A stretch of 63,564 nt of DNA, filler included, from Reclinomonas americana ATCC 50394 (lineage: Eukaryota): the NCBI GenBank assembly GCA_048213135.1. It is 9 parts of 9 records of this genome, joined end to end, with 100 filler letters (N's around TTAATTAATTAA, not from the genome) between each part and the next. Parts side by side here need not be neighbours in the genome. Positions count along the whole stretch, not along the records: positions 2,414 to 8,712 come from AFZH01016771.1; positions 8,813 to 14,368 come from AFZH01016772.1; positions 14,469 to 15,633 come from AFZH01016774.1; positions 15,734 to 35,391 come from AFZH01016775.1; positions 35,492 to 52,932 come from PS016116.1; positions 53,033 to 55,432 come from AFZH01016780.1; positions 55,533 to 59,960 come from AFZH01016783.1; 2 more parts are not named here. The stretch is one strand, 5' to 3'. The notes beneath the pieces are model-generated. The model was given only the letters and a program-made list of their open reading frames with translations. It was not told where the DNA came from and searched no databases. Shown one piece after another: positions 6,501 to 56,747 of the stretch. A program made the position numbers and the translations under genes. Positions within the stretch are counted from its first letter, which is position 1; every line of letters starts with the position of its first letter.

Positions 6501-7886
6501 GTCGGCACTGTTGACGCCCAACGACAAGGCCGCACAGGGCGGTAGCACGTACGACTGCTTCCGCAATCTCATGGCCAGCCAGCCGTACAGGTGCGGGAGG
6601 TGAAGTTCAAGAGAGAGAATTCACGCACTCTCTCTTGACCCTGTTGCACGCAGAGAACGCTTGGACCGCATCACCATCTGTGCCGACACGGTCATGGGCT
6701 TGAGCGGTGGCGAGGCACTGCCACTCACCAACCAGCAGAGTTCTGTCGCTGGAAGGTTTCGAGTCTCGTCAACAGCTGATCTCACCCCCACCGTCATTCG
6801 CCGCCACATGGCAGTGCGGGAGGAGCGATCGGTGGCCGCACAGCAGTACTTTGACGTGAAAAGTTGCATCGTTGTCTTCTGTCTCTCAACCCTTACCCTC
6901 CCATTGTACTGACTGGGCTTTTGGGTCGAACAGAGGCTTCTCAAGCGCACATTGACATTGACGACACGTGCGAAGAAGATGGTTTGCGAGACGTTGTGCA
7001 GATTTGTGAAGTGTGTGGTTGCTGACGTCCCCACTCGAGCATTAGCAGCTGAGCCAGTGGCATCCGAGTCGCTTCAGCGTCCACCACCGCCCCTGGTCTG
7101 CAGTCTTTCTCCCCCATGTATCGCCCTCCATCAGCACTGGTATTCACCACATATTCCACCCCACGCAGAGAAGCAGATCGAGTATGCAACCGCTCTCCAA
7201 GCAACGCAGCCTGCTGTCACGCATGCGTCCACTCGGTCGCATGCCGGCCGCTGAGGGTCTCGAGGGACCAGAGCCACCATCCGACTCGGTCTCCGACATG
7301 CGCTCGGCGTCGGTGGAGGACGTGGTGCGCACCGTGGGTCTCTTGTCGTGGGTGCCAACCACTGTCAAGGTACGTTCCGTTTGCAACTCACCTCGCTCAA
7401 GTCAATCGACTCACGTGGCGAGCTATCAGATGCTGGGAACGGAACCATTCGAGGACACCCGACAACGGTGCACACAAGACAGCGGAGAGAGTGTATGTCT
7501 GGGAGCCAGCATGGCGGTCGACGACACCGACGACAGCGAAGAATCGCGCGAGAGACGAGCACTCCGCGAAGAAACCATCCGGTATGACCGCCCTTGCCGG
7601 TGCCCACTTTCCTTTGCCATCCCTCATTTCCCTGTGTGCCACGCAGCTTCCTCTACGGTCTCTACACAATCACCCGTTGCATGTTACTTGCTGCTGACTT
7701 TGGCGACTGACTGGCGATTGCACAGGTGCCAAGATCGAAGGTCCTCTGTGGGTCTCGGACCAGTTTCGTCGCACCACGATCTGCTTGTCGCAGCAGCCAC
7801 GAGTCTGTATCCTCACACTCAAGTTGCTGCACAGCTTCGGCCTGTCTGTCGAACTGGAGCAAGTCGCTGTCAACAACAGTCAATGA
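3563..7886 (+). CDS. Endonuclease/exonuclease/phosphatase (EEP) family protein, TDP2-like, with large insertions
   Basis: Spliced motifs in the expected order: LVTYNVW, DPDVVAFQE, GTAQLE, VLMGDFN, FVDAW, STYD, RLDRI, KMLGTEP, PLWVSDHFGL. About 14 introns. Confidence 0.85.
4315..4825 (+). repeat. 18-bp degenerate minisatellite (about CTGTGCTCCTTGTCGTCG) inside an intron of the EEP gene
   Basis: The unit is directly visible many times and produces the spurious DDKEHS and LLVVA ORFs in the track. Confidence 0.9.
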
Positions 7887-8245
7887 ACGTCCACTCATGT
7901 CACTGTGTCACACAGCTTCCTTGGTCTCTAATCACTAGTAGTGCAGCTGCAGGTGCCAAGATCTCCTTTGACTGCAGCTGCTGCCACGAGTCTACTCTAG
8001 CCTTCATGCTTCGGCCCAGCTGTCGCACTGTGTCAACAATAGTCAATCAGCGTCCACTCATGTTCACAGCTTCCGGTCTCTGATCACCAGTTGCACCTTG
8101 TTTGCTGCTGAAGTGCGTTAGTAGTGCAGCTGCAAGTTCCAAGATCTCCTTTGACTGCAGCTGCTGCCACGAGTCTACTCTAGTACTCATGCAGCTTCGG
8201 CCGTGCTGCAAGTCACCAGTCCATGAACGTCCACTCATGTCCTCT
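7720..8245 (+). repeat. Three degenerate tandem copies (about 165-230 bp) derived from the last intron and exon of the EEP gene
   Basis: Recurring blocks: CCAAGATC (about 7729, 7956, 8139), GCCACGAGTCT, GCTTCGGCC, and CGTCCACTCATGT (about 7888, 8051, 8228). Confidence 0.8.
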
Positions 8246-8271
8246 CTCGTCGCTGTCAGTCACGTGGACGC

Positions 8272-12518
<4,247 letters not shown>

Positions 12519-16100: not shown

Positions 16101-19100
16101 GAGGGTGTACAAAAGACTGACGCAGCGCACATAGTTATGCTGCAGAAGTTATCGCCCTCATCTTCCCTCCCTCTCTCCCTTCCTTCCCTTCCTTCCCTCC
16201 CTTTTGCCTTTCCCTTACCCCTCTTCCCCCATTTCGCAGGCCCCACATGCGACCTGTACGTGTTCGGCTTCCCCTCACTGACGGAGCGCGCCGATGACGC
16301 CGCCTCTCCACCACCGGAGGATGCGGATGGCGACGGTGCCGGCAGTGGGGCCGAGGACGAGCCACGACTGCGCGTTCCTGCACCACGCCGCGTCGTTGCA
16401 CCTGCCTCCACGCCGGCCGACGTTCTTGCAGATTTCACGGCGTTTGTTGGCCGTCCGGCGGAGCCACCGGTGTGTTTGCGTGTTTTTCTCTCTCTCCGTT
16501 GTGAAGATGGGAGCGACTGACACAAGGTTGTGGTAATGGTGTGGAAAATAGCTGTGGGCATTCGGCTATCATCAGTTGAGTTGCTTGCTAATAATGGTCG
16601 CACCCTACCTCTTCGCCGTTCACTCATGTGCGTGCACAGGTGCCGCTGGTCGTACCCTGACTCTGAAGTCATCACTGGAGTGGTAGACACGTACGCGGAG
16701 GAGCGCATTCCGCTGGAGTGCATCTGGCTGGTACGATGCTGCACACAGTGTTGTCGCTCTCCACTTTCATCTCATCGTGCTGGTTCTCCTCCAGGACATT
16801 GACTACATGGACGGCTACAAAGTGTTCACGACGCATCCGCAGCGGTTCCCTGATTTCCCGAACTTTATCGCCCGCATGCGTGAGCGCGGAGTTCGCACCG
16901 CCTGCATCTTGGATCCAGGGTACGTCTTGTGTGCCTGTTTGTTGACGTGTCCATGCAGGGAACCTCACTTGTTCTCCACCCGCCAGCATCAAGAAGGAGG
17001 CTGGCTATGATGTGTACGAGGAAGCGAAGGCGCGAGGCTACCTGGTCACCACGTTGCGTGCAATCGCTCAGCATCTCTTGTCCCCCTGTCGTATTCACTG
17101 GCAAGCAGGCGTCGTGACGAGGAGCTTGTATCGGTGGTGTGGCCCGACCCGGCGGGTGAGCGTGCACATCCCCTCTCATCTTCCTGCACTTGGTTACTGA
17201 ATCGTGGTGTGTTCTGCTCAGTGTTTCCGGACTTTTCGCGTCAGGTCCTTCATATCAGTGGCGTGTGATGGGTTGTCAACTGGCTGATCGTGCACTACAG
17301 GAGGTGCGCGAGTGGTGGGCTCGCCTGTGCCGCGATCGATACCTGGCAGCGGGGGTACGTGTGAATATGCTCGCTGCAAAGACACTTGCTGTCAGTGTGC
17401 TCACGCAGTCTCTCTCTCTCTCTTTTTCTCTTGCCCTTGATTCTTTCGTCTCCGGTCGCATTTCCTCTCGCCTCCCCTCGTTTCCTCTCGTCTCCTGTCG
17501 TTTCCTCTCGTCTCCTATCGTTTTCTCTGGTGTCCTATCGTTTCCTCTTGTCTCCTGCCGTTTCCTCTCGTCTCTTCTTGTTTCCTCTTGTATGTTGTCG
17601 CATCCTCCCTTGCTCTTCCCCCTTCGTCTTCCCCCTTCCTCTTCCCCCTTCCTCTTCCCCCTTCGTCTTCCCTCTTCCTCTTCCCCCTTTGTCTCCCCCT
17701 TCCGTCTCCCCCTTCCGTCTCCCCCTTCCGTCTCCCCCTCCGTCTTCCCGCTTCGTCTTCCCCCTTTCGTCTTCCCGCTTCGTCTTCTCCCTTCGTCTTC
17801 CCCCTTCGTCTTCCCCGTCCGTCTCTCCCCCTTTTCTTCCCCTTCCGTCTTCCCCTTCGTCTTCCCCCTCTCTTCCCCCTTCTCCCCCTTCACCCTTCCC
17901 CCTCTCCCTTCCCCCTTCTCCCCCCTTCGTCTTCCCCCTTCTCTCCCCCCTTCTCCCCCTTCTCCCCTCTTTGCAGTTGAGCGGCCTGTGGGTCGACATG
18001 AACGAGCCAGCGGCCTTCACTCCCAGCAAGACTATCCCGCTGTCGTCCAAGCACGGTTCCGCGTACCACGCGCAGATGCACAATCTGTATGGTGAGAGCG
18101 AGGGAACAGAGTGCATTGAGGTCGCACTTTGTCGTCTCGAGGCTCACCTCTCTGCGTGCAGGGTTCCACATGTCGCAGGTGGCGTCTCGCATGCCAGTGA
18201 GATGTTTGCTGACTTCCACTCCTTCTCGCTGAGTCCACGCGCGCTACTGCAGGCCACCTTTGCAGCGTGGAATGCCGAGTCTGGCAAGTCTGCGGCCGCC
18301 GAGACAACGGCCGTCGCAGTGGCCGATGACGGGGCGTCATCGTCAGCGCCATTGTTGCCAGCACAGGAAGCACCATGGGTGCTTACGCGCAGTGGATTCA
18401 CTGGTAACGCATTTTTACGCCTGTGCACGAGCTTCAGAATTTCTTACTCACTCGTCTGCCTGGTCGTCGCGCAGGAGTGCAAAAGTATGCATGGGTGTGG
18501 TGCGTCACTTGGCCGTGTTCTTGCTTGACTGCAAGGTCGTAGTACGTTGTTGTTGACTTTATCTGCAGGACTGGCGACAACACGTCGACCTACTTGCACC
18601 TCGGTCAGAGCATGCCGACGATGATGAATCTCGCGCTGTCGGGTGTGCCATTCACCGGCGCCGACATTGGTGCGTTCCTTTCTGCATTTGCTTCTCTCCT
18701 GCACCTCGTCGCTGACTTGCCCGTACGACGCAGGTGGCTTTTCCCAGAACTGCACGTCGCATCTGCTGGCTCGCTGGACATGGGTGCGTCTCCATTCACA
18801 TCTATTCATCCTGTTGTATTTTCTTATCATTCACTCCTTTTGCAACAGCACGGCGTACTCTATCCTTTCATGCGCAATCACTCGGCCAAGGGCACTCGTG
18901 GCCAGGAGCCGTGGGCCTTTGGGGCCGACACGTGTGCCATTGTGCGTTCGGCCATTCGCTTCCGCTACCTCATCCTGCCGGTACGCGTTGACGCACATTG
19001 TTTGCACTCCATTCGGGCGTTCACCATTCCCTCTCTGTGCAGTACATTTTCACAGAGGCACTCGCGTGCTGTGAGACCGGCCTTCCTCCTCTGCGACCGC

Positions 19101-20084
19101 TGCTACTCGAGTTCCCATTCGATTTGCAGTGCCGCAACATTGAAGACCAGGTGCCGTTTTCTCGTGCTCACCAACCCCGTGGACCCCGCTCCGTCACTCA
19201 CCTTCCGTGTGCAACCGCAGTGGATGTATGGCTCGCACATGCTGGCGGCACCGATTCTGCAGGCGCACACCAATCACCGCCACGTCTACCTGCCGGCGGG
19301 TGTGTGGCAGGACATGTTCACTGGCCAGGTGATTCAAGGCGGCCGCCACATTGTCGCCGAGGTGCCGCTGGAACGCACAGCACTGTACCAGCGAGCCAGC
19401 TCGGCCATTCCACTGCAGCAGTCCGAGGCCCTCAACACCTCGAGCAGCTCGTACCTCACTCACGTCGTGTTGCGTCTCCCATTTTTCCTTCAATTCTCCC
19501 CTCAGCAGTTGCCACTCACACTCTGCTGGCGCGAAAAAACAGGTGGCGCATCTTCCACGGTTACAACACGCACGCCGAGGGCATTCTCCGCCACCGACAA
19601 GTGCGTGACGGCCAGCTGGAGGACTTCACCATGAAGCTGAGCACGGCGCATCTGCCGCCGCCAGAGAGCATCGACGGCACGATCTGCGAGGTGACAATCC
19701 AGCCGTCGGGCAACGTGTCGCGTGTGGCGGTGAGTGGAGAGGGTGGACTGCATTGAGAGACTGGAGCCTCACCTTTCGTTTGTCTCCCCCTCTCGCTCAC
19801 AGTCGGTCACCATCGAAATCAGCTTTGAGCAGCAGCCACGACGAGTGGAGCTGGTCGGCGCCACCGGTCTCGCCGAGCCAGTGGCCAACGGCGACCTGGA
19901 GCCACTGTCGTTCCGCCACAGCGTCCTCGACCAAGTGCTGGCACATCGCGAGCGCGCGCAGTCACCCACCAACGTCCGCCCCGCCGAGCTGCGACACCTG
20001 TGGCTTGTCGAGCTGCCATTCGTGCCCACCGCGCTGTCGTCCTCCGACCCCGAAATCAAACTGCTCTTGCAAGTGGAGTACTGA
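13191..20084 (+). CDS. Glycoside hydrolase family 31 alpha-glucosidase
   Basis: Spliced motifs YYGTGERTGPL, PPLWAFGYHQCRWSY, IWLDIDYMDGYKVFT, ILDPGIK, VFPDF, the nucleophile motif LWVDMNEP, HNLYG, LTRSGF, the acid/base motif WTGDN, GADIGGF, PFMRNHS, QEPW, RPL, VYLPAG. No obvious signal peptide. Spans two gaps, so some exons may be missing. Confidence 0.95.
13335..13685 (+). repeat. (CTCA)n/(CA)n microsatellite in the first GH31 intron
   Basis: Directly visible. Confidence 0.95.
14005..14270 (+). repeat. (TTC)n/(CT)n microsatellite
   Basis: Directly visible and precedes a gap. Confidence 0.95.
15045..15500 (+). repeat. Intronic tandem duplication, period 243 bp
   Basis: GTGTGATCTTTGTCTCCGCTCATTCATATCTTCATTGACCG at 15101 and 15344. 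Confidence 0.9.
17440..17970 (+). repeat. C/T-rich minisatellite (about CCCCTTCGTCTTC) in a GH31 intron
   Basis: Directly visible. Confidence 0.85.
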
Positions 20085-23051: not shown

Positions 23052-26000
23052 CTAATCGTTGGTCACCACGTTCATGTAGTGACGGTATGTCGTCATCAGC
23101 GTCTCGGTGAACAGCAGCACGCCCTGCTCGTCGACGTCGGCGATCACTGTAACACACTCATCATCAGCACAAGACAATCAACTGATGCAACGCAGCACAG
23201 CACAGCACGCACCCTTGAACTTGATCAGTCGATCGGTCTTCTTGCGGCTGAAGAGGCCCGACGAGTACGGCGTGCGCAGGTCGAGACGGATCATGTCGCC
23301 ATGCGGCTCAATGTCTTTGACGTCTGCGCAACAACAACAACGCATTTAGTATTTCTATGCAGAGCGTGAAGAGCACCGCGTTGACGAAACTCGCAAACGT
23401 GGTCACCCACTCCAGGTCGTACTTGCGACTGCCGACCTCGATCAGGCGCAGATCGGTGATGATAAAAATGCGGTCGTCGTTCTCAAAGTGGAAAATGTAC
23501 TCGTCTGCGAGAAGAGACAAGTCAGTGCTTGCTCCTCTTCTTCTGCCCTCCCCTCCCAATACACACACACACCGTTAAAGAAGCGCGCATCGGCAGCCGC
23601 GTACATCATCACCTTGCCCTCGGCGGCGTCCTCGTCGTACGGCTGCGCATGCAAAGTAACAGTGAGCAGCGGAAGAAAATGGAGAACCGGAATCAACACC
23701 ATCGCCGCACCAGCATGACATTGTGCTTGTCAAAGGCACGCGGATTGCGCAACCGCAGACCACGGGCCTTGCGGTCCAACAGGGTCGTGGTGTTCTTCAG
23801 ACCCTCGCCGGTCTTGCTTACCATGTCCACCGCGCCTGTCACCGGTTTGACCACCACACTGTGCGACGTAGCAGGTGAGCGACAGAATGAATTGACCACC
23901 CGTGTCTGCTTTGACGCACCCCACGAGTCCCTTGCCGACGCCCTTGAAGAAGCCGGCAACACCGCCACTCCTGGCACCCTTGAACGGATCGACAAAGATG
24001 CCGGTGATGCCGGTGAAGAGACCGCGGCCGAGACTCTGGCCGCCCTGCCACAGTCCCTCCAGCATGTGACGCGGGCGCTTGCGCACAAACGCCTGTCGTC
24101 GGGCAATGTAATCGTCGTCCATGGAGAGTGCCGCAATGCCTTTTCCGAGACTGCCGGTGACCTTGGAGGCGGTATTGAAGACGCCGTGCAGCGAGTTCTT
24201 CACCAGACTGAAGGTACCCTGTGACAATAAAAAAATGCAGGGCGTGAGCATCTGTTGCGACGAGAGAGAGGTCCCGTTAAATCAAAACTCACCTTGGCCA
24301 CACCGGCTCCAAACTGCACCGGCGACTTGACGGCTCCCTTGGCGGGTTCCACGAAAAAGTCACGCACGCCCGTGCCGAGGTTCGTGACGAGGCCGACTGG
24401 GTTGCCGAGAATGTCGATCGAGCCCACCACCTTGTACGCCTGCGCAGGAGAGTGATGAGCGACAAACACACTGCGTTGACACCACCGACCAATTGTGCAA
24501 ACGCACCTGAGAAATGGCCGAGTTCTTGTACTTGGCAATGAGGCGATTCGTCAGGCCCGCCGACGTCTCGCTAATGTATTGTGCATGCCACGCGTTGAAC
24601 TGAAGATGCGCACGGTCGACGTTCTTGAAAAAGTTGCCCAGCATGTCCATCACCGGGTTGTGGCTGCGCACGGACAGTCAGCATAAAAGCGCGGACCACA
24701 CTCGCTGGAGGGACATCGACGCACAAGAGGCCAAACGAATGCTTCGCACTCGGAGTCTTGTTGGCAATGAATGACACAAAGAGCGCCATCGATTCGAGCA
24801 CCATTTCACGAATGTAGACGCGCCCGCTGGCGCCGACCGGCACCTCTGGCATGTCGTTGATCACCGACCTGCACAGGATCGTCGTCAGTGAACCGTGAGA
24901 ACGCACACACAAGGCCATCACCATAGATTGACGCACAGGGCCAGCTGCTTCTCCGGGCCGACCACCTTGCCGGTCACTTCACCGAAACCGGAGACAAAGT
25001 CAATCACACCCCACAGCAGCGTCTCGTCGACCACGATTTCCATCTCTTGCAACAGGAAGCCAATGTACTTGTAGTACGACAGTGAAGGATCTGCGTGTTT
25101 CGCATTGTCGTATGAGTACCACAAATTCATCGCAGTGGTCGTGCCTTCCCCTCTCTAATTTCCATGTCTCTCTTACCTCTCCTCGCGGCCTCTTCCCTCG
25201 TGTCCTCTTCTCCTTCCTGTCCATCTATCTCCCCCAATCCTCCTCCTCGACTCTCTCTTTTGACCAAGTTCCCTCTCCCTCCCTCCCTCCCTCCCTCTCC
25301 CAGTCCTTCTTCACTCTCTCTCTCTGTCCTTCTCCACTCTCTCTCTCTCCCTCTCCCTCTCCCTCTCCGCATCCTTTCCCTGTTGCTCTCTCCCCCTCCC
25401 CTCCCCTCCATTGCACTCACCACCCAACACCTTGATCATGCTAAAGTGCAGGAATGGCTTGTCCACATCGATACTGCCGGCCGGCTCCAGCAGCACTGGG
25501 TGCAAGAAACGACGCAGTTGGTTGTCGACCTGAATCTCCAGCACCTGCACCTCCAGCGACTGCTCCTCGCCCGTGTTGCGCATGTGCACCACCGGAAGCG
25601 TGACGGTGAGGAACAGCAGCTCCTGCACAGTACCACAAGAGAAGCAGACGTGTGTGAGAGAGGGAGCAGTAAAACAGGCAGAAGGCTGGCGGAGACGCAA
25701 CTCTGGGCTTCTGGTCGACCACCGACAGGCTGACCACCGGCAGGCGCACGCCGACCTCGAAAATATTCAACAGGCGACCCAGTGTTGCGCCATCATTTTG
25801 ATCGCCAGTGCCACCAGTTTCCTCGTACGAGAGGCGGAGAACGCGAGTGGGGCCCTTGGTGCGCACCACACCATACACACGACGGCGATTCTGCGAGTGC
25901 GATGAGTTGGCTGACACAGAAGAATCTCGGCCTCCAAGCCATGAAGTGCTCGACACACGCACCAGCTTCATCAGCCTGCGGCGTACTCCGACTTCTTCAA

Positions 26001-38229: not shown

Positions 38230-39292
38230 ATGTCGTCCGCGCCAACCTCTGCGGCCGCTCCTCCCTCGTCGTCTGCGCAGTCGGCGAGTGCCGCTGGTGC
38301 CGCCTCTTCCTCCTCCTCTTCCTCGTCGTCCTCCACCGCAGCAGCCGCAGCAGCAGCAGCAGCAGCAGCAGCAGCGGGTTCAGGCAGTGTTGCAGGCGTG
38401 TCATCCTCCTCCTCGTCGTCCCTGTCTGCGCTCGGTGCCTCGTCGCCACTGCCACTGGAGTATGAGATGTTTGGTGTGGTGCATCGAGAGGATGTGGAGA
38501 CGCTGTGCCGCCTGTTGCGCTGCGTCACGGGGTGTGTCGACAGCAGCAAGTTCCGCTTGCATGAGTGCTTGTATCGCATGGCTGATGGTGCGCTGCTCTC
38601 TCATTCTCCCTCTGTCTCTGGGGTTGGGCTCATTGTTGGGTTGCTGCAGCCGATGATACGTCTGTGGTGCGAGTGTATCGCAATGTGCTGGAGGACACGC
38701 AGCACTCGCAGCGACAGCAGCTGCAGCCGCAGCCGCAGTCGGCAGCCGATCCGACGGCGAAGGGTGTGGGCGAGTGGGCTGTGTGCTGCTACGAGCCGCA
38801 GGTGATGGAGTACATGTATTCGTCGAACACGCCGCATGCGACGGTGCGACGAGTGGCGAAGAGCTACGCTTCTGGGACTCTCCAGCAGCATCTGCTGTTG
38901 ATGCGGTACAAGTTGCAGCACGAGTATGTCAAGGAGGGATCGGTGTTTACGTCGGCCGAGGGCACGCACATTGCCGTGTACCGCGTCATGCAGGTGCGTA
39001 TGCAGCATGCATTTCCGCCTCTTTCATGCATGGCTCACACGGCAAGCAGGTGGTGAACAGGGGGAAGCTCGACGAGCTGCAACCGGCCAGTGAGGATCAC
39101 TTTGTCGTGCACTTGTCACAGACCTTCCCCGACGACCACTCGCTGGCCAGTGCGCAGCCGGCCATGGCACAACTCGTCGACTCATTGAAACCGTTGCGTG
39201 TTGCCGGAGTTGTGTTATTTCCCCCGCCTCCTGCTGACAATGTGCGCCCGTGCAGCATCGTGCAACTAGAAGGCGAACGGCTGTACTCGTGA
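38230..39292 (+). CDS. MED18: Mediator complex subunit 18
   Basis: EYEMFGVV...LCRLLRCVTG, YKLQHEYVKEGSVF, HFVVHLS and QLVDSLKPIVQLE follow the Med18/Srb5 motif order. Three introns and a Ser/Ala-rich N-terminal tail. Confidence 0.8.
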
Positions 39293-39360: not shown

Positions 39361-42300
39361 TTATACGGGGCCCAAGCGGTCCTCCAGTGCATGAATGATC
39401 TTCATGTACTGGACGTCGCGATTGCTCAGGCCGTTGCGCAGCACTTGCGGAACTGTGTTACACAGTTCTTCGAACGCGGCCTTGGTTTCGTTCTGTTGTC
39501 GCACCCACACGCGTTTCAGGCGGTAGCGATCGAGATCGAGACGCGAGATCTCGTCCTCGGGTTGATTCTGTGACACCCTCCCCAACGTAAGCAACTGTGC
39601 GTGCAAATCTCGATCGGCAAACAACACACACACCTTTCGTCGCCGCTGCTCTTCTCGGTACACGTGCGTGACGTGGAAGATGCAGTAGCAGGTGGCGAGA
39701 CGAATCCACTCGGAGCCAAAACGCTCTTCTGGACCCGTGGTGTCGACGCCGTCCACCAGCACCTTGTACGTTTCCAGCCACTCGGACTGGTTGAACGGAT
39801 TCGCCACCCAGTCCTCCTCCTCAAAGTAGAACGGATCCACCGAGCGAGCGAGACGACGACACAAGCCGCGCGCCAGACGCCGCCGAAGCATGATCCAGGG
39901 CATTTGGTGATTCTCGTGGGCCACCAACTGGTTCAGTTGCGTGCGCAGCAACTCATTGGCCTCGAAGACAAAGCCCTCGCGGATCAGCGCGTCGCTCATG
40001 GATAGTGTCACCCACGCGCCGAGCTGTGTTCCGACCATTCACGTCGTGAGACAGCAACACTTACTGAAACCAATAGAAGCGCACACGTCGTCTCACGCAC
40101 CTCGTGCGTCATGAGTGGTGCCACGTCTTCGCGCATCAGACGCAGTGCATCCTGCGGCGATGTGGTGGGCGCGAGCTCTTCGTATTTGGAGCCCACATAC
40201 GCTGGCTTCCAGGCTGTGCACGGTTCGACTTTTCAGAACACCGCACGTTTCTGGCTGAAGAATGACAGGGAGAGAAACGCAACAGGTTCGATGCCTAAAG
40301 TACTCGCCCAGATGCACCCAGTACAACGAGTACTTGCGCCAGTACTGTTACACACGAGTCAATACACATGCGACGACGGAAGCCCTCAACACTCATGCTG
40401 TGCACGCACCACCAAGTCGTAGCGCATGGCAAACTCGTAGCCAGTTACCGACAGTGTGTGCAGTCGATCCCAGTCGGCCAAGAACACCAGCACGTACGCT
40501 GCATGACCATAGAAGAAAGCCTTGGACTCCACGTGGTCGATTTCGTTCACGAGTTTTTCGCTGCAGTGAGTGACGAAGTGAGCGAGTGCGTCAATCCTTC
40601 GCCGAAAACCGCAGAGGCAAACCATTGGTCGAGGCACCGCTCGGCGCCCTTGTAGTTGCCCATGTGCGCATAGTTCTTGCCCATCATGACGTATGCGCAA
40701 ATCATGGGATCCGTCGCACGCGAGTACGTGTAAACCAAGTGACCGTGCTTCGAGAAGTCGTACAGCTCCTCCAGTCGCGAAAACGGAGGAATCGTGCGTA
40801 GGGGGTCGCCGATACGCGACATGAACAGGACGGCCTGCATTGTGTGTGTGTCGTGAGCACAAATCGAGCACAAGCCTTGGAGAACGAGAATGCTGCACTT
40901 ACCGTGCGATAGTAGTCAATGAGGCGGCGCTCATCCTTGATCTTGTCGACGATGGCTGTCAGTTTCTTCCACGCGTCCTCGGCGCTCTCCATGCGGCCAT
41001 CGGCAGCCGGCTGCGACGTCTCCACCAACCACAGCGTTGACAGTGCGTCGTACTTGAACTCGTACAGCATGTTGCCGCCGACCTGTGCGAGAATGTGAGA
41101 GTCATGCGCGCGTCGTGTCACACAGTAGAGACTCACCTCCGGGCACGTTTCCAGAATCTGCAGGGCCAGCACGAGCGCGGCCTTGGCGTCGGCCAAATTG
41201 CCGTTGACGAGCAGTGTGCACTGTGACATGAGGCACAGCAAGTGGAACTTGGCAGCCTGCAGTCCGGCATGCTCCGCTGTGAACTTGACAGTGAGATGCA
41301 GCGACGAACAAGAGCGAAAACACATAGTGCGTTGGCCGCTGTCGACGCACGTTGGGAGCCGACCCACAGCTCGAGCATCGAAACCGCCTTGGTCAGCACG
41401 GCCATGGCAGTGCGATGCTTTGAGATGCTGGTCAAGGCACACGCGTGCTGGAACATGCACTGCAGCACGAAGAACAGAGTGTCGAACATGTCGGGCTCTA
41501 CAAGTGCGACGCACGCCGAGTCAGTGTTCTCAGTCGACCAGCCAAAGTGGAAGAGGAGTGTGTGCGCGCAACTGCTTGCCAGAAGTGGCTCGCCAGAGCG
41601 ATCGTTTTCGCCCATGGTCAGACCGAGCTGTCCGTGCATGGCCAGAATGGACAAAAGTGTGTGCTGATCCTCGCGATGTCGCTCGAGCCACATGTCGACA
41701 TCGGTCTGTCCACGAAGTTAAACAACAGCGCGACGACACCCGAGAGGAAGAGATGGAGTGTCCACACACCGGCAACTCGGCAGCGAACAGCTCCAGAATG
41801 CATCGATGAATGTTGGCGCGATGCGACGGCAGCGTCTGGTGATACAGCGAGAATGCAGTTGTGCTTTGTTTGAACTCGAACGTCGGCACCACCTGCGTTG
41901 TTGTTTTTGATCCCGCATGTGAGATTTCTGTCCACTAACGAGAGGCGTGTCACACGTACCTTGATCTTCTCCATCGAGGTCTGTCGCACAGGCGCCTTGT
42001 TGCCGAGTTTGCTCGTCACCGATCGCAGCACATCGGCGCCGCTCGGTTTGCTTCCCGGTGGGTCTCGACGATCGACCGTGTTGGACTGATACTTGATCTC
42101 TCGACGCGAGATCAGAATCTTGCTGTTGACGGCGTTGTTGAGTGCCGTGAGCACGTCCTGCTCGGTAATGTCGGCGCGCGCCGAGTCGCTCCTTGTGATG
42201 ATCTCCTTGATGGTGGCCGCGCGGAATGCATGCTCCAGGCCAATAACACAGGCCACACGAAGCACCTGCTGATCAGATGCCGACAGCTCGTCGAACTGCT

Positions 42301-45300
42301 GCTCCACAGACGGGTCCAGTTGGTGCGACACATCGACCAGCGTCTTGTGGTCGTTCGGTGAAAACTGCGATTGATCGAGGGCGCCGTTGTCAGTCTCCTG
42401 CGATTCTGGCAACATCACGCTTGGCAGAATGTACGCACCCTGCACACTCGATCCTCGCCGACCACCAACATGTGATGCTCGACAAAGATGCGCATGAGTG
42501 CACGGAGTCGGAACGGCAAACCGTGGCTCTGCTCCCACAGCTCGACCACCACTGGCTCTGCCACTTTCTCCGCCTTGGTGATGACTCGAATGTACTCGGC
42601 GCACTCGTCAAACGAGAATGCCGTAAGGTGCAGGGTCTATGTTGTTACCATCACGTGAGTCTCATCATCACATCGCCGTGATAAACAGATGAGCCGTGAC
42701 GCAACACGAAGATTCAACGACTCGGCCACGGGCACCGAGAGACCCAGGAAGCGGCGGGCCTCTGTCTCCACGTCCTTGGTCATGGCCGCGTCTTCCCATT
42801 GCGTGTAGTTGCACGTCAGTGCCATAAAGGGGAGACGGTCGGTGGTCACTGGGAACTCGCCGAGCGGCGTCTCGGAGTAGTTGAAGGTGAGGAAGCGCTT
42901 GAGTAGCGCGTGCGACTCGGCGTCCATGAGTGATGCATTCTCAAACACTAGCAGCGCAAATCCTTGGTCTGCAGTCAAGCAACGGTGAGCGCTCTCGCAA
43001 GATAAAGCCCTCTCAGAAGCAACGCAACTGCGGAAAAGGCGGCGAAGGAGTTCGTCAATGAGCAGCACGGCTACATCATGTCGATACGCCTCGATTTCCT
43101 TCTCCGACAAGTTGCGAATGGGAAGCACCGGACCAAAGTCCAGGCGCAGAACGGGATTCAACACCGGTGCCCAGGCGGCCAACTTGAATGTCTTGAGAAG
43201 CAGCAGCACCAGATTGCTCGGCACAAACGGCACGCTCGGCGTCAGGTCCTGACCACGTCTGTAGTATGTACACAAAAAAGCCGGTGAGTGTGTCGACATA
43301 ATGCCACCGATTGCACACTGAACAGACAGACCGCTTGGGACCAGAGGCCGCCACTGGTGCCTTTGGCTTGTAGTTCATGTTGTGAAGTCGCTCCAGTAGG
43401 GACATGAGAGGTCGCGACCACACTGCGTAGGGCGTAGTGTGGTCGAATGCACTGCTCTTGCACACCACCAGAGGCAGCCGCTATTCATCGGGGAGAATGA
43501 GTCTTTTCTGAGGGATTATAACACATTCCAGTGACTGTTGGAACTCACCGCGTCCTTTTCGCTCATCACCGCAACAAACTTGTGCATCAGCGTGTGGCAG
43601 CCGACGCCCTGAATGCCACTAATCGTACACACACGACCGACAATGGGAAGGCGCTCCATCGGCGGTGCCGAACTCTGGCGACGCGAATCGCGCGCCGAAC
43701 CACGACTGTTGGCAAACGAGTGTGAGTCAGCATCACTCCAACAACAGCTATACATACAACAAGAGGAAGACCACACACACACGAACCTGCTGGTCAGTGG
43801 TCGCGCGGATGCGGCCGACCGTCGTGCACTGACGACGTTGCTGCGACGTGCCGAGCTGGACTCGTTTCTCGTGGCGATAACTCTTCTCCGATCCTCGGCC
43901 AGCGTCTCCACGTTCTCCAGCGTGCGCATGAGAACTTCGAGCTCCGTAGCGCGACCAGCTGCGCAGATGGACACAAGTGAGCGGGGGCAATGTTGGTGCT
44001 TACGCGCTGAGCAGGCAAGAGACTGCATACCAAAGTGCTCGAGCTCGGTGGTTCCATTCTCTACTCTGAACTCAAAGTTCTTGTGACTGTTGAAGTCGTT
44101 CTCCGGGTCGTGCACCACTTGGTACACCTTGACTGGGTCGGCCTTGCCTGTTGTGAGGAAAGGAAGGAATTTAGGCATGAGAGCATTGCCGCCGCAAGTG
44201 AATCTACTATCGTCACGCACCTTTAAGGACAAGCGACATGGGATCGTTCACGAGCTTGAAATCACTTCCGGCAATGGTGTCGTCGGTGAGTGATGACTCG
44301 CAGCATGAGCTGAGGCACAACGCAGGCAACAAGACTTTGGATCCATCTGCTCACGGAAGGATTAGGCGGGGAGGGTCCTCATTCAGGAGATGCATGCGCA
44401 CACTTACCTTTTTGCACATTGTACTCGGGATTGTCCTTCATGTATCGCATTACACCCATGACACGAGCGGCCGTGTTGACCACATCGCCCAGCAGCGTGA
44501 ACTCGCTGCGGAACTGGTTTCCAGTTGGGCCAGTGTACGCGGTGCCGTTGCTGTGCAGGATAGACAATTGGGTGGCAATGATACGAATGGAAGAAGATAA
44601 AAGTTGAAGACGCACGCGACACCGGCAACCACATCCAACCCGAGTTCCGTCAGTGCCTGCGTGATGCGCGATGCGGCGTATACGGCTCGCTGGTTTTGCG
44701 CTGCGACGAACAACAGTGAGCAGAAATGCTTGCAACGCAGATGCCGATGCTGACAAGGGACGGCGCACCGACTTGGGAGCTGGCAGAGAGGCCAAACACA
44801 ATGAGCATGCCAGCGCACTTCTCGTCGGAGAAGAGGTTGGACGTGAACGCCTCCAGCAGAGTTGCTGCTTGCTGCGTCAGATACACGCCTTGATGCATCA
44901 TGCTGCGGTGTGGCACGTGAGTGAGTGACGACGGATGCGCGAGCGAAAATCACACGAGAATAGCGGCCAACATGCCTCTGCTTGCCAGTGGCCAGTTTGG
45001 ATGTCGCAATGGGATCGTTCGAGAAGGCCAGGAAGACGACCGAGACGTTGCGGAGAGTTGGTGTGAACTGACCACTGAAGGAACGCATCGAGTCCAGCTG
45101 CTTGTCGCCGAGCTGATTCAGCAACGTGAGAGCGCCCTCTGGATGCTCCATGTCGCTGCGATGAAGTTTTCGCTCTGCACGTGACATGTTGGGAATGAGA
45201 ATGAGCTTCCTTGGTTTCGACGGGAGTTGCTGACACTGACACGCACCCGAGGTTTCTTGAATAAAGCCGACACCAAAGAGCAACTGGTACACCATCCACG

Positions 45301-48300
45301 AACGATCGTGCTTGTGGTCCTCGTGCTTGACCGGACTGAGCCGCAGGAGACCGAGGACACGAGAAAGCAGACTGCAGAAAGAAGGAAATGCCTTTAGCAA
45401 TACACCGCATGCAGGATCACGAACGTAATCACAAACTCACCATTTTGGGTATAAACAGGGCTTGATGTAGTGCTCGAGCGACTCACTGAGTGTCACTTCT
45501 CCCTTGCCACACGCCGCCATTGCCTCCATAAGGCAGGCATATGCGTCGCCATAGAACAGATACTTCCACCGACTCTGCAGTCCACCGACAAATGTGGCTG
45601 TCACCTTGCCGTACGCGATACCTGCGTCATCCAGTGAGCAACATATGGAGATACCTTGCACTACGCATGGTGGTGGTATGGTTAGCGTACCAATGTGCAC
45701 CATGAGGTGCGCCGTGTCGGACTCGTAGCAACCGGCCTCACGCATCAGTCGAGCGGCGCACAGGCACGCTCGAACGGCCGCACAGTTCATGTGCTCAATC
45801 ATCGCCATCGACTCCTCCACCGTCTCAAAGGCCTCCAGCATGGCCTCGCCTTTGCGCTGCGCTCGCAGCGACTCCACAAACATCAATACTTGTTCTTGAC
45901 AGAAGCGCTTTGTTCGCTTCGTCTCCGCCCGCTGTAATTGTGGCTCACAGTCAGCTTCAGCAGCAGGCGGCGATCGTCGACAAAGTGGATCATATGTGCA
46001 CGCAACGTCGTTGACAAAAAACACCACCACAGCGTCGCCGACAAAGTTGAGAATGTCGCCACCGCACTCCAACACAATCATCAGCAGCAAGCAGAAGTAC
46101 TCGTTGATGACAGTCGACAGCTGCTCCACGCCCTCGGCGCCCAGGGCGCACAGCGTTTCGGTGAGAGCTGTAAATCCACTGATATCGACCAGCATCAGAG
46201 CGCCCTCCATCTCGCGTCGAATGTTGCTGCCAAAGGTCGTGCGGCCCAACTTGACCATCTCCGACACAATATCTTGAATGCACAGTGGAACGTTGATGCT
46301 GTGCGCCAAGCGAGTGCCGATTGTCGTCAGTCGGGAGCCGCACACACAACGTGCAGAGGAGTCGGCACACATGCACTCACCGAACATCGACCATGTCTTT
46401 CTCGGGTCCCTCACGCGGGGCACCGACCGGTGGTGAAAACATGGTCTCCAGGTGGGCGGTGAGCTTTGTGCGTGCACCCGGACGTCGCACACCGAGGTCG
46501 CTGGTCTCGGAGCCGAGCACCGAAGAAAAATCAATCTCTGTGCTGGAAGAGGCTGCTGACCGGCGGTCGTCGGCAGCCGATATCGGGGAGTAGACCTTGG
46601 CAAACTCGCCCTCCTTCTTTGTCGACGACGCTGCATCCTCTTCCTCGCCTTCGACGCGGAACGAGACATCGCGACGCTCGTCGTACTCCACTGGCGCCGA
46701 TGGCAGGCCGTTTCTGAGGAATGCAGTCAGCAAACAGTCGGGGAGCGAAAGTGTTCGTGCGCTAGCCAGCCTACCGACGGAGTGTGGCAATGTGATTCGA
46801 ATCAGAGCTGCCGCCCTTTTTCGATCTGTGCACGTCACGTGAGCCATACGGCAAGAGTGGATGGCACGAAGGCAGTGTCACGCAACTTGCGATACCAGTG
46901 CGGAGACATGCTGGGTGGTGGGGGCGCCTTGCGCACCGCCATCAGCAACTCCTTCTCACTCTCTGTCTCACCCGCAACGTCGCTATCAAAGCGGTCACCA
47001 CCAGGAAGGGGTATGGGTTCCACCGACATGGCGCCAGTCTGACTCGAGTCGTCGAAAATCGCCGTTGTCGGCAACACCATGGTGATCGACTGTGGACCGG
47101 CAGAGTGCATTGCTGGACTGCCTTCACTGGAAGCCTCTCCAATTGAGCCACTCGGCGATGGCGTGCTGCGCAAGCCACAAATAAAAGGATGAGATCCTCA
47201 CAACTCTGTGCGTAACACCGTAGTCTCATCACGCAACGCGCTGTCGCGACTCCCAATCTCAAGGTCGGGTCCATCGCTCTCGGGTGTATTGCGGCCCTTG
47301 CCATCGTGACTGTCGCGACTCCGGCCACTGACACTGCTTGATCGAGTGCCAAACTCCACCTCGTCGTCATCATCCTCCAGGCGCTCTGTGCGCAGCACGA
47401 TTTCGGGTGCATCCAACTCGTCGACCTCATCCGGCGGCAGCTTGAATGCAAGATCGTCCTCCTTGAACGTAAAGTTGCCAAAATGCAGCACATTGCCCGT
47501 CGTGCGAGCCTTTTCTGGCGGCGTGGCAGAGCCACCCAGTGCGAATCCCGACCAGCGAGCCATGTTTGCCATCGGGCCCACAGCAAGCATCGATCCACGA
47601 ATGTCGTCAATGGCGTCGGAGCCCAGCAGTCGAGCACGTGTACGCGCCTGGATCGCCGGGTCCAACAGGCCAATGCCAGACGGCAACTCCGACACCTTCG
47701 TGTCGAGCGCATACGGGCGTGGCTCTGGTGGATCCCACGATGCATTGATCGGCACCGTGCGCTGCAACAACCAGCCAAGTTCGGCCCACGCATCAATGTC
47801 CACGGTACGTCCCGGTGATATGCCACGCGTCAACACGAGCTGCTCTTCGGTGGGAGGGTTTGGCATCCTTCGCGTCATTGTCGGCCCCGCCGTGGATGGT
47901 CGGCATCCAGCGAGTGCTCTCGCCACGGCAGCGGCGCTCGGTGGTGCCACTGGTCTCGGCAGCAGCGGGTTGTCGTCCTCAGTCGGCTCAGCTGGCGGTG
48001 CGACTTCGTCGGCAGTGGCGGTCGTGCGCACACTCAGCTGCGGAGTCGTCGCCAGCGACATGGTTTGCAGGAGCTTACTGTGCTCCAGTGGTGGTGGCAT
48101 GAGGCCCCCGCGCGCCGATGTCATTCGTGACGGCATGGTGTCCACGAATGTCGTCGTCAGTGTGTCGTCGTCCCTGCGGTTGCGCGAACAACATAAGACC
48201 GAGTACAATCGGTGAGGAAGGGAACGACTGTGCACACGCAACAAGTCGTGCCACGGCATGTCGTCGATGCTCGTGGGTCGTGGACGCCCGCCACGACTCG

Positions 48301-51138: not shown

Positions 51139-52922
51139 TTAGTCGTCGCCCTTGACCAAGCCAATGACCTTGACGTGTCGGATCGAGACGATCGAACCGC
51201 CGCGCACGTTGTTGGGGAAGCGCAGGCGCACGTACTTGCAGATCTGCTCGCCCGGCAGCGCGAATCGTTGCATCAGGTCACGCGTGCACTGGAACACCGA
51301 GAGCAGCGTCCAGTCGCCCAAGTGGCTTGATGTGTAGACCTCCACAGCCATGGGTGCGGGTTCGCCCGAGTGAATTTCGACTTGGGCCACAAAGCACTGA
51401 CCGCCGTCGGCCAGCGTGAGGTCGATTTCGGGTGATACCGTGCGGTACACCTGCTCGTCGTCGACCAGCACATTGTCGACAATGTTGTGCGGCTCGTGCA
51501 CCTGATCCCACTTGGAGTAGGCGTAGGGGTGCTGAATGGCGACGCGCAGTGGCTCCGACTGGTGCACCTGGGAGGCGACGCGGGCCAGATTGCGGCGCAG
51601 CGACTGCACCATGGGGTCCCACTCGTCGTACTTGACGTCGAGCTCCCTCTTCAGGTTCTCCTGGTCGCGCTGGCGCGCCTTCTCCGTCTCCTCCGCCTGC
51701 TGCAGGCGCAGGTTGAGGTCCGACACCTCGCCCTGCAGGGCCCCCACACGACCCTCGGCCGCGCGCAGTCGGGGCAGTGCGGAGCCATTGTCGCCGAGCA
51801 AGTCGGCCGGGATGGACAGCTCGTACGTCTCCAGCGACTCGAGGTACGCCAGCGACGCAGGCAAGCGGCGATCCGAGAACAACCGTGACAACTCGGCACT
51901 CTCGTCGCTGCGCGAGGGCGGAGAGAGAGAGAGTGGGGGGAAGGAGGATTAGTAACAGACGTGCACAAGACACAAATGAGTGTGGCAGTGCTGCGGCGAC
52001 TCACCGGAACTTGATGACCATGCTTTGCAGCGTGCGAAGCTTGTTCTCCAGAATGAGACGAGCCGAGCGAATCTTGCGGAACCAGCGCATGACCAGGAAG
52101 CGGCGCAGCACCGACTGGCCGCGCACCACCGAGTACTTGAAGCGCAGGTACGAGCGACGGCACTGGCGAGCCACCACATTGGCTTGGCACTTGAGCAGGC
52201 ACTTGCGAATGTGCTCGTACTGGTTGCGATCGCAGTGGCCGCGGAAGGTGGACTGAATGGCCGTGGCGGCAGAGTCGCGACGAATGCCGCGGTTCCGGCG
52301 GTACGAGGTGAAAGCGAGGAAGCCACGAATGGTCGCCTGCAGCTTGATGACCTTGTTGCGCACGTCGTTGTAGGCCTTGCGCGCCACAACTGCACAGCAC
52401 AGGAGTGAGCGAAATGGACAAAGGGGGAAAGGGGAAAGGACATGAAGAAGAGAGATGGTACGCAACATCCACGCCAGATGCGCTGCACCTCAACGGCAAA
52501 CTCCTGTTGCGCCGTGAGCAGCACCTGGTTGGCGGTCCATCGCTCGTCCGGATCGACACGCAAGCAGTTCTCGATAATGGAGCCAATCGCGTGGTATCTG
52601 GCACAGACGAAGATGAAGGAGGTGAGCGGAGCTGTCAAGCGATTCAGCTTTAAAAAGAAACTCACCCCTCCAGGCGAGACCAGTCGACCGAGGCCGTCAG
52701 CACATCGTCGCGGAAGGCCTCCTCGTTGGAGACGTCGAACGGCAGCTCACCAGTCACCAGCTGGTACAGCGTGACACCGAGGGCCCAGATATCCACCGGC
52801 AGGCCGTACGACTCCAGGCGCAGCAGCTCGGGCGCCCAGTACACCAGCGTGTGCGGGATGGCGGTGCCAATCAGAATCTTCGAGAAGAGCTTGTGCGTGC
52901 GGCGCGCCACATCGACCTCCAG
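51139..52922 (-). CDS. 3' half of pseudokinase gene: kinase C-lobe, IQ motifs, coiled coil, galactose-binding-like beta-sandwich
   Basis: YWAPE...VDIWALGVTLYQLVTGELPF, CLRVDPDERWTA. IQ motifs VQRIWRGFVARK, LQATIRGFLAF, IQSTFRGHCDR and CQANVVARQCRR. C-terminal KYVRLRF...VSIRHVKVIG. Confidence 0.85.
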
Positions 52923-53032
52923 CTGCACGGGGNNNNNNNNNNNNNNNNNNNNNNNNNNNNNNNNNNNNNNNNNNNNTTAATTAATTAANNNNNNNNNNNN
53001 NNNNNNNNNNNNNNNNNNNNNNNNNNNNNNNN

Positions 53033-53917: not shown

Positions 53918-55375
53918 ATGTCCATCAAGGTACGAAGTACGGACACACTTGCAACTGTGTGTGTCTCTCTCACATACACACCACTCACTTGCGCTTCTTC
54001 TTTGCGCGCTTTTTCAGCTTGAGGACGTGACGCGTCTGGCGGTGCGTGTCTCTATGCGCGCGCGTGTGTGCGCGCGTGTGTCATGCCATCTCACCTTGCT
54101 GCTCGTCGTTGGTTGTTTCTCTTGTGCGTGTGTGTGCAGCTTGTGGCGCAAGGTGGTGGACCGGGAAGTCCGCGATCACCGGGCTCGCGTGGCAGCGGCC
54201 GTCGCAAGCAGCATGTGGAGCTTGGTGCGTCGTAAGTCGAAAGTCAACACAAGATATCGTTCTTCGGTTGTTGTTGTTGTTGCTGCTGCTGTGCTGTGAG
54301 TGCACTATAGCGTTCACTCGTGTGCGTGAGAGAGAGCGTGTGTGTGACAGTGTGTAATGAGTGTGCAATGAGACGGTCGATATGTTGTGGGTTGGTGGTT
54401 GTCGGTTCGCCATGGCACGCACGCGCGCACACATAGTGAGAGTGCTTGGTACATAGCTGTGTGTTTCCTTTCACATGTGCGCGCGCGTGTGTGTGTTTGT
54501 GTGTGTGAGTGCGAGAAAGAGAGGCGACCATATGCTGCGTGGAATATTCACTCGCTCATGTTTGTGTTTTGTTTTTGCAACAGCGCGTCGCCTGCGTGCG
54601 GCGTCGGGTACGGCGGCCGCTCGCGATGCTGCCAATGAGCTGTGCGCGATCTCGTCGGTGAGTTGTTTTTGTTGTGTGTGCCATTTCTCCGACATGTCGC
54701 GCGCGCGCTCTCTCTTGCTCACACACACGCGCGCGTCGAATAGGTGGAGGAGCTCGACATTGATTATGACAGCGCGCTGGGCATGAAGCGTGGCGATTTG
54801 GCCATTATCCAGGGCGAGACGTTCCGATGTGCGCCCAAGGCGCCTCACTTGGCCGACTGCGCACTGGTTTGTGTGTGTCACACAGTCTTTCTGGTGGTTT
54901 GGTTCCGTTTTTGCTCATGCGCGTTGCGAGTAGATCCTGAAGCGTCTGGACTGCGTCGATCGTCGCACGTTTGATCAAAAGTGGTACGAGATCGACACGT
55001 TTTCGCGCTTCCGCGGTCACCCCAACATTGTGTCGCTGTACTCGTACTGGAAGGAGAAGCCGCAAAGCCAGTACATTTACAAGACCATTGGTGCGTGCGT
55101 GCGAGTGTGTCTGTTGAGAGGATCGATCGCTGTTTCCCTCACATCGCCAACGACGGACAGTGATGTTGCTGGAGGAGGGCGTGCTCGGTGACATGCTCAC
55201 CAGTGTTGTGCGCAACCAATCGCGCCCGTCGGAGCGTCTGGCGCTCAAGTGGTGCGCCGACATTGCCAAGGGTCTGGTGGCCATCCACAACTGCCAGATT
55301 ATCCACACGCGCATCAAGCCGTCGGCCATTTACCTCGACATGAAGCGCAACGCCATGGTCGGCGAGTTTGGCAAG
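53918..55375 (+). CDS. 5' half of pseudokinase gene (N-lobe to activation-segment start)
   Basis: MSIK...LILKRL...YEIDTF...GHPNIVSLY...MLLEE...DIAKGLVAIHNCQIIHTRIKPSAIYL...VGEFGK, ending at a GT donor just before a gap. Confidence 0.85.
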
Positions 55376-55532
55376 GTGTGTTCCTCTGTTCTCCCCCTAT
55401 TCGCATCTCGGTGTGTGCTCAATTCCTTTCCTNNNNNNNNNNNNNNNNNNNNNNNNNNNNNNNNNNNNNNNNNNNNTTAATTAATTAANNNNNNNNNNNN
55501 NNNNNNNNNNNNNNNNNNNNNNNNNNNNNNNN

Positions 55533-56747
55533 TGTGCCAGCCATCACAGGTGCATAGTAGTGCTGCGCCGGGGCCGCCACGACCGGAGGTGCGGCCACCG
55601 GGAGCGCCAGCGCTGCCTGCGTGGCCACCAGTTGCGAGGCCAGGGTCAGGATCTCGGGTGGCACGCCCGGTATGACGGCCAGCTGAGCGAGCGCAGTGGC
55701 GAGGCCCGTGGCGCCTTGCGGTCCCTGCGAGTCGCGATGGTAAGAGAAGAGCAATGATCCCCTCTTGTACTCTGCGCACGCAACTGGAATGGTAGCCGAC
55801 TGCACCATCTGCTGCACGGCCGCTTGCCACGGAGCCACTTGCGGTGCCACGACAGGCACTGGTGCGCCGTAGGCCATTGGTGGTGGCGCCTGCGCGTACC
55901 ACGGTTGTGACACGGGCGGCGCGGCTGCACTGGGCGCGCCTCCCACCCCCGGTGCATACGGTCGATTATCGTAGGCCTGACGCGGTCGGCCAGCACCACC
56001 ACCACCAGCTGCTGCAGCTGCGGCTGCAGGTTCCGCACTCACACCACCGCGATGCCGATCGGGCGGAGGCTGGTACGGGCGATTCGGTTCAGCTTCGCGA
56101 TGCGGTCGCAGCTGCGGACCACCGCGTGGTGGCGATCGACTGACTGCACGCTTGTCGCCGGCCGCCGCCGGCAAGTTCCCCACCACTGCGCGCTCGAGAC
56201 GCTCACTGATTCTTCGCAACACCTCAACAGGGAACACACTCGGGTACCACGTGCGCATCAGCGTCACAAACAAATGTCGTGTTCGTGGATCGTAAACCTT
56301 GGTGCAAGAAAAAGGAGGAGTGTCAATCGCTCTCTGCATGGTGGAGCTCGCACAACGACGACGAATGACAGATGACGTTACATGTTCAAAGGCTCCACAA
56401 AAGGTGCGCTCCAGGTTGCGTGCAAACGCCTCGACGTACGATCCACCCACGTTCTTCACAATCGAATCGAGCAGATACATGGCCGGCAGCTTCTGATCCG
56501 GAGCCGCCTGCATGCACGACATGTGAGACACGCCTATTCTCTGTGCGTGCGAGGAGCAGCAACCCACCGACTCAATGTGCGCCTCCAATGCCATGACCAG
56601 CGCGTCGACCATCTCTGGCTGCGACGCATTGTCCTCGGCGACAAACGTGAGTGCATTGATCATGGGCTTGGAGTTGATGACCAGCTCGGCCAGGCCAGCA
56701 CGGAACTGGTCGTACAGGCGAGCGGCATCGCCGCTCAAGCGACTCAT
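55533..56747 (-). CDS. PCF11: PCF11 cleavage/polyadenylation factor, CID domain (partial, 3' end in gap)
   Basis: LAELVINSKPMINALTFVA...QKLPAMYLLDSIVKNVGGSYVEAF...LMRTW...VFP. Confidence 0.92.

Follow-up and report, generated by a model that had tools for sequence, protein, structure and literature searches.

A frequent class of 5′ splice sites with a one-base-displaced consensus among predicted introns of Reclinomonas americana

Introduction

Recognition of a 5′ splice site by U1 small nuclear RNA (snRNA) in a register shifted by one base is credited to Roca and Krainer (2009), and registers with a one-base bulge have been described as well (PMC4856993). There, the bulge +2/+3 register accounts for 68 predicted and 54 curated human sites out of 201,541 (Table 3 therein), and the validated non-canonical registers together make up 1.5% of the same 201,541 sites; in humans, non-canonical U1 registers are known only as rare exceptions, each proved singly. 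In human cells U1 can bind one base downstream, with U5 and U6 fixing the cleavage site, and at one human site, the STAT3 tandem donor, the U6 register is displaced by one base (both PMC11162779). Here we describe a 63,564-base stretch of the genome of Reclinomonas americana ATCC 50394 (assembly GCA_048213135.1; the whole stretch is called the window), in which about a fifth of the predicted donors carry the local donor consensus with an extra T directly after GT (N/GTTGCGT versus G/GTGCGT, the slash marking the exon–intron boundary). We propose that these sites would constitute a second abundant class of GT-AG donors, hereafter the shifted class; G, the usual last exon base (−1), is nearly absent before them.

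The shifted class resembles the human shifted-register sites, as described in PMC4856993 and PMC11162779, in having GU at +1/+2, a consensus-like part one base downstream and predicted cleavage at GU. It differs from those rare and atypical sites in its frequency (27 of 133 high-confidence predicted donors), in its sharp consensus (GTTGCGT in 21/27) and in the exclusion of G from −1. Like the bulge +2/+3 register (Roca et al. 2012, via PMC4856993), it has one extra U directly after GU; in that register, however, −1G stays paired with C9 of U1, whereas here −1G is avoided (1/27, as against 57/71 in canonical donors). As at the STAT3 tandem donor, for which out-of-register pairing of U6 has been proposed, the GT of +5/+6 lies one base off relative to the cleavage site; in that single human site it has moved one base upstream, to +4/+5 (PMC11162779), and here one base downstream in a whole class. 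A one-base-shifted mechanism is thus already of a known kind; frequency, sharp consensus and −1G exclusion are what differ here. Within the open-access literature, in so far as its text could be searched, we found no description of a lineage rich in shifted-register donors; the heptamer GTTGCGT matched only primers and unrelated sequences, and for the GTGCGT donor consensus there was nothing on a shifted class among the matches listed.

Results

All intron counts given here refer to introns predicted in this single window by a custom dynamic-programming gene finder. On its coding side, the gene finder combines a three-periodic coding model with a hard open-frame constraint that includes intron-split codons; on its intron side, it uses a content model, a branch-site term, an acceptor matrix and a length prior. 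The donor term scores intron positions +3 to +10 only; as exon bases are excluded from splice scoring, the −1 base cannot bias the choice of donor. With a trained two-component donor model, 153 introns were predicted, and 133 of them form a high-confidence set (length 39–135, gene score at least 20); the 20 introns left out are long or lie in low-scoring models. The median predicted intron is about 68 nucleotides (nt) long; the introns carry a CTSAY-like branch site about 15–25 nt from the end and finish in CAG.

We classed the donors of the 133 high-confidence introns by the position of the conserved G-T and tabulated the −1 base against donor class. Canonical donors (+5G and +6T; n = 71) follow G in 57 cases, A in 5, T in 7 and C in 2; weaker donors with +5G and without +6T (n = 22) follow G in all 22 and A, T or C in 0; shifted donors (GTT with +6G and +7T; n = 27) follow G in 1, A in 11, T in 10 and C in 5; GTT donors with +6G only (n = 3) follow A in 2, T in 1 and G or C in 0; and the remaining donors (n = 10) follow G in 3, A in 5, T in 1 and C in 1. 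The difference in −1G between canonical and shifted donors (57/71 versus 1/27) is strong (Fisher p = 1.3e-12), and the association of the −1 base with donor class that a previous reading of the sequence (the original prediction) had proposed to tabulate is confirmed as real in predicted introns. That reading had found G nearly absent before GTT-class donors (A 16, T 9, C 6 and G 1 among 32); a hand count over all 153 introns gives A 16, T 12, C 9 and G 1 among 38 GTT donors outside the canonical register, and the single G-preceded donor that it named, at 60468, is the one found here. Its statement that ordinary donors mostly follow G also agrees with our counts (57/71 canonical, 22/22 weaker), and the exceptions that it cited at 33519, 34006 and 49326 are as described; such exceptions do exist, but there are 14 of them and not the 8–10 estimated.

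The avoidance of G goes beyond the loss of a preference: at the 27 shifted donors, −1G is observed once as against 8.2 expected from codon-phase exon composition (P = 7.5e-4). Shifted donors make up 11/16 of the donors after A, 10/17 after T, 5/7 after C and 1/80 after G; as their share is about two thirds after each non-G base and 1/80 after G, the switch is one between G and non-G. After non-G bases there are 26 shifted donors as against 14 canonical ones. When the canonical register is kept, GTT donors (GTTTGT, GTTCGT, GTTTGC and GTTCGC; all 153 introns) follow G in 11/12 cases, compared to 1/27 in the shifted register, and therefore it is the register that matters rather than T at +3. Other insertions into GTGCGT behave differently from the extra T: GTGGCGT is a donor at 1 of its 14 occurrences, and nine further one-base variants tested gave 0 donors.

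In ordinary donors, compensation between exon −1G and intron +5/+6 is well known. The ordinary donors of the window follow this rule, in that weak-core donors have −1G in 22/22 cases and a strong core is present in every canonical donor that lacks −1G; the shifted class runs counter to it, being an irregular donor that does without −1G.

An artefact could be suspected, from faulty intron prediction or from sequencing errors in homopolymers, given that 7 of the 27 shifted introns are not needed by the reading frame and that the final gene finder had learned the motif. However, the class emerges without any donor model: with the donor term off, 150 introns were predicted, and −1G was found in 29/41 canonical and 0/14 shifted donors (p = 2.2e-6). 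Antisense introns in the control regions are zero in both runs, the four Pfam-anchored genes holding 84 sense and 0 antisense introns with the donor term off, and 101 and 0 with the trained model. The contrast in −1G persists among introns whose retention breaks the frame or adds a stop (53/65 canonical versus 1/20 shifted, p = 5.5e-10) and among those in Pfam-anchored genes (38/45 versus 0/20). The raw motif points the same way: GTTGCGT occurs 30 times on both strands together, as compared to 13.2 expected (2.3-fold; 0/100 shuffles reach 30), is a predicted donor at 23 of these occurrences, and is preceded by G in 2/30, one of the two G-preceded copies (56415, plus strand) lying on the strand opposite to a gene model (minus strand) that has a CID-domain match. 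Random extra-T errors would not depend on the −1 base, and this association excludes the random sequencing error that the original prediction had argued against. Moreover, at four shifted junctions (16575, 17053, 19469 and 46006; Table 1) the alignment to homologues passes through conserved motifs without a gap. We therefore regard an artefact as extremely unlikely; the alignments argue that the shifted junctions are real, with cleavage most probably at GU despite the displaced consensus.

The gene models are nevertheless imperfect, given two doubtful junctions in the GH31 glycosidase gene: those predicted at 16929 and 18981 (both plus strand) border on parts of the homologue alignment that are gapped or cannot be aligned, their placement is probably wrong, and 18981–19200 may contain another intron. 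An early gene finder with a weak coding model and a flat intron penalty was dropped as it fragmented genes, and unconstrained self-training was dropped when it ran away to 381 introns. Simple tests of open-reading-frame continuity did not separate real motifs from control motifs.

Table 1. Positions of GTT-type donors with displaced consensus, gaps and genes in the window (last exon base in lower case, slash at the exon–intron boundary)
Feature	Position	Strand	Remarks
a/GTTGCAT	6861..6867	+	sequence context; start of the range of the original prediction; absent from final gene models
a/GTTGTGT	9269..9275	+	predicted intron
a/GTTGAGT	16575..16581	+	GH31 gene; outside the 27 (gene score below cut-off); gap-free versus P0121
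c/GTTGCGT	17053..17059	+	GH31 gene; outside the 27 (gene score below cut-off); gap-free versus P0121
t/GTTGCGT	19469..19475	+	GH31 gene; gap-free versus P0109
c/GTTGCGT	39193..39199	+	Med18-like gene; predicted intron
t/GTTGCGT	60080..60086	+	predicted intron
g/GTTGCGT	60468..60474	+	predicted intron; sole shifted donor after G
a/GTTGCGT	62747..62753	-	predicted intron
a/GTTGCGT	55778..55784	-	sequence context; no call by the gene finder, open reading frame open through; end of the range of the original prediction
t/GTTGCGT	52460..52466	-	IQ-motif gene; predicted intron
t/GTTGCGT	48236..48242	-	adenylyl cyclase gene; predicted intron
c/GTTGCGT	47231..47237	-	adenylyl cyclase gene; predicted intron
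a/GTTGCGT	46880..46886	-	adenylyl cyclase gene; predicted intron
c/GTTGCGT	46000..46006	-	within cyclase catalytic G-D-A motif; continuous alignment to P0102, P0004
a/GTTGCGT	43022..43028	-	predicted intron
t/GTTGCGT	42699..42705	-	predicted intron
t/GTTGCGT	40277..40283	-	predicted intron
t/GTTGTGT	36124..36130	-	VPS13 gene; predicted intron
t/GTTGCGT	35953..35959	-	VPS13 gene; predicted intron
a/GTTGCGT	35746..35752	-	VPS13 gene; predicted intron
a/GTTGCGT	35160..35166	-	VPS13 gene; predicted intron
c/GTTTTGT	34666..34672	-	VPS13 gene; predicted intron
c/GTTGCGT	33812..33818	-	VPS13 gene; predicted intron
t/GTTGCGT	33279..33285	-	VPS13 gene; predicted intron
a/GTTACGT (shifted form of GTACGT)	30818..30824	-	predicted intron
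t/GTTGCGT	28425..28431	-	predicted intron
a/GTTGCGT	27434..27440	-	predicted intron
a/GTTTCGT	26192..26198	-	predicted intron
a/GTTGCGT	25695..25701	-	predicted intron
a/GTTTCGT	23384..23390	-	predicted intron
Linker gaps	2314-2413, 8713-8812, 14369-14468, 15634-15733, 35392-35491, 52933-53032, 55433-55532, 59961-60060		
Longer plain N runs	37013-37943, 60642-61606		
SelO gene		+	Pfam
GH31 glycosidase gene		+	Pfam
VPS13 gene	~22-37 kb	-	Pfam
Soluble adenylyl cyclase-like gene	39.4-49.1 kb	-	PF00211 and PF13191 relatives
Smaller genes			Pfam: Med18, prenyltransferase alpha, IQ, kinase, CID, PCI

Of the readings considered for the shifted class, a one-base register shift fits best, and we hold it with about even confidence. 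On this reading, U1 would recognize the donor one base out of register: intron +1G would lie opposite U1 C9, the usual place of exon −1G; +2U would be left unpaired; the UGCGU core would pair as usual; and cleavage would stay at the only GU, presumably set later by U5 and U6. With C9 already occupied, an exon-final G would add nothing and would probably draw U1 into the bulged register, which seems to be disfavoured; we propose this pull as the reason why G at −1 is depleted below background. The pairing scheme, the harm from −1G and the roles of U5 and U6 are what we infer from the pattern of bases at the predicted junctions.

Pairing energies were calculated with ViennaRNA for the U1 5′ end as printed in PMC4856993, taking the best subset of pairs in each register (the first two bases of U1, the AU dinucleotide, are treated in PMC5766165). 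For the 27 shifted sites and the standard U1 end, mean energies are −0.10 kcal/mol in the canonical register, −0.60 in the shifted register and −0.54 with a bulge at +3, and the 71 canonical sites average −6.83 kcal/mol. Thus the energies in the two registers, to which the original prediction had looked, show no clear gain from the shift. At model sites, calculated with the standard U1 end, A at −1 makes the shifted register the best, and with C or U it is level with the bulged one; when −1 is G, the bulged register is best, with a gain of about 3 kcal/mol (−4.6 versus −1.4 for the other bases). A hypothetical U1 complementary to the local consensus gives the same ordering, but with it the shifted register beats the bulged one at all three non-G bases.

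These energies bear on a bulged-U alternative, in which U1 would pair as usual, C8 with +1G and A7 with +2U, leaving the additional U (+2/+3) bulged, as in the human bulge +2/+3 sites. The motif does look like the consensus into which one U has been inserted, sites of such a shape in humans are filed as bulge +2/+3 (Table 3, PMC4856993), and for a non-G base at −1 the predicted energies of the two registers are close (bulged −0.54, shifted −0.60). However, a −1G–C9 pair would be worth about 3 kcal/mol, so that G should be favoured at least as much as at canonical sites, whereas it is seen at 1/27; nor does a bulge explain why, after non-G bases, the shifted donors are more numerous than the canonical ones. 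Pairing strength alone would favour G in both classes; as G is nearly absent from one of them, the bulged register is apparently not used productively, and we consider this alternative unlikely.

What the energies leave of the idea that the first G of the intron stands in for the exonic −1G is a part: register dependence and the loss of G speak for it, but the energies show no compensation. The near-absence of −1G fits +1G in the place of −1G; compensation between them does not follow. The A excess at −1, which the original prediction read as mirroring the A at canonical −2, does not bear out that comparison: shifted −1 (A 11, C 5, G 1, T 10) differs from canonical −2 (A 24, C 23, G 15, T 9; p = 0.011), A being enriched in both but T and G mismatched. 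Shifted −1 instead matches the non-G bases at canonical −1 (A 5, C 2, T 7; p = 0.77), so that an excess of A does not specifically point to a shift. The further proposal that coding constraint forbids −1G finds no support at phase-0 sites: for 7 of the 9 shifted ones that lack −1G, the last codon has a synonym ending in G; coding constraint on G may apply at the 17 phase-1/2 shifted sites.

The same phase-0 sites bear on a historical origin without a functional shift, by which a T insertion, a G-to-T donor move or an inserted intron family would have produced the class and the −1 pattern would be inherited. In its favour, G/GTGCGT and /GTTGCGT are one substitution apart within the same heptamer, and shifted −2 resembles canonical −3 (p = 0.95, in a test of low power). 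However, a synonymous G was within reach of drift at 7/9 phase-0 sites and has not appeared, even though third bases are most often G (39%); that these sites stay non-G speaks for ongoing selection. A one-base donor move breaks the frame, and a matching acceptor move leaves NA, not AG, at the intron end; by the same sequence logic, the one-base intron sliding suggested by the original prediction is awkward, as moving both ends by one base breaks the terminal AG. A blastn comparison of the 133 intron interiors (E ≤ 0.01) gave 54 non-self matches, and the 30/54 listed are all between canonical-class introns; with no shifted intron among the matches listed, no inserted family is seen, and sequence shared by shifted introns beyond the splice signals, as in introner elements, is likewise absent from these 30/54. 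We consider a historical origin of this kind quite improbable.

Base preferences at +4 raise a different possibility. The consensus of canonical donors is GTGCGT, with +4G in 1/71; those with +4A have −1G in 17/17 cases, whereas 14/53 of those with +4C or +4T lack −1G (p = 0.016; for example 44220 minus, 24292 minus and 19730 plus). C at the position equivalent to +4 is found in 24/27 shifted as compared to 39/71 canonical donors (p = 0.002). This ordering is opposite to what is expected with standard U1, for which A would be helpful, and is a hint that +4 may face a G in the snRNA. An altered or second snRNA could accordingly be envisaged, in which U1, a U1 variant or a U6 register would match GUUGCGU and the two classes would be read by different RNAs or pairings. 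The consensus GTGCGT poorly matches the standard U1 end at +3/+4, the +4 ordering (C and U tolerated, A needing help, G in 1/71) would suit G in the partner RNA, and the shifted sites are almost unbound by standard-U1 energies. Against it, Rfam at the gathering threshold gave 0 matches in the window, and hence no U1, U6 or other snRNA gene was found there. The bases with which the U1 5′ end pairs show very wide conservation, and C at +4 is frequent in GC-rich genomes without a changed U1. On balance we find an altered snRNA improbable.

Discussion

Several results count against the one-base register shift. A pure shift predicts the order A > G > C = U at −1, with a spectrum like that of canonical −2, whereas A 11, T 10, C 5 and G 1 are seen, and G is below background rather than neutral (1 versus 8.2 expected). 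At the 27 sites the shifted register leads only narrowly when the standard U1 end is used; whatever the −1 base, model GUUGCGU is predicted to pair less strongly than GUGCGU, both with this end and with the hypothetical consensus-complementary U1; and pairing strength leaves the excess of shifted over canonical donors after non-G bases (26 to 14) unexplained. Retention of 7/27 shifted introns is tolerated by the frame, their length being divisible by three with no in-frame stop, and the evidence base is predicted introns from one 63.6-kb window.

A more specific form of the register shift is possible, though we advance it tentatively: shifted pairing may be a retuned and regular second mode, serving about a fifth of the introns and about two thirds of the non-G exon ends, perhaps through a changed U1 5′ end with G facing +4, a dedicated U1 variant or a U6 register; selection would then act against exon-final G as a trap in an unproductive bulge.

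If the register shift is true, the shifted class would offer a natural system for the uncoupling of U1 binding from the choice of cleavage site, and for why −1G matters. Gene prediction programs and splice-site scorers that read only six intron bases in a fixed register would rate about a fifth of the donors here as weak or miss them.

Genes and other features of the window

The window has a G+C content of about 56% and is interrupted by ten gaps, which carry a 12-base linker inside except for two that are long N runs (Table 1). The linker gaps have the format 44 N, TTAATTAATTAA and 44 N, giving stops in all six frames, and gene models end at gaps. Genes were placed by Pfam matches on open frames. 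The closest outside relatives of the window proteins show 39–56% identity in protein searches: the longest cyclase exon as query finds distant relatives only, at no more than 54% identity over short stretches, and the top match of a GH31 exon has 39% identity.

The large minus-strand gene is, by its sequence relatives, probably a soluble adenylyl cyclase-like gene. Its model (39361–49136, minus strand) comprises about 2,560 amino acids and 30 introns, with class III cyclase and AAA-ATPase regions, and its nearest matches are bacterial cyclase/TPR, vertebrate ADCY10-like and diatom proteins at 25–50% identity.

Within the CID-domain gene, 55717–55784 on the minus strand is an intron-like stretch of 68 nt in open frame, running from a/GTTGCGT to CGCAG with a TCTTAC branch-like motif. 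U12-type introns were set aside, the donors being unlike the U12 motif. The listed matches between intron interiors are (GT)n/(CT)n-like simple repeats in canonical-class introns (54042 plus, 54459 plus, 59582 minus, 59530 minus, 63534 minus and 52004 minus). Third-position G+C reaches 0.84–0.86 at 51142–51948 (minus strand) and 11901–12506 (plus strand), compared to about 0.65 elsewhere in the window.

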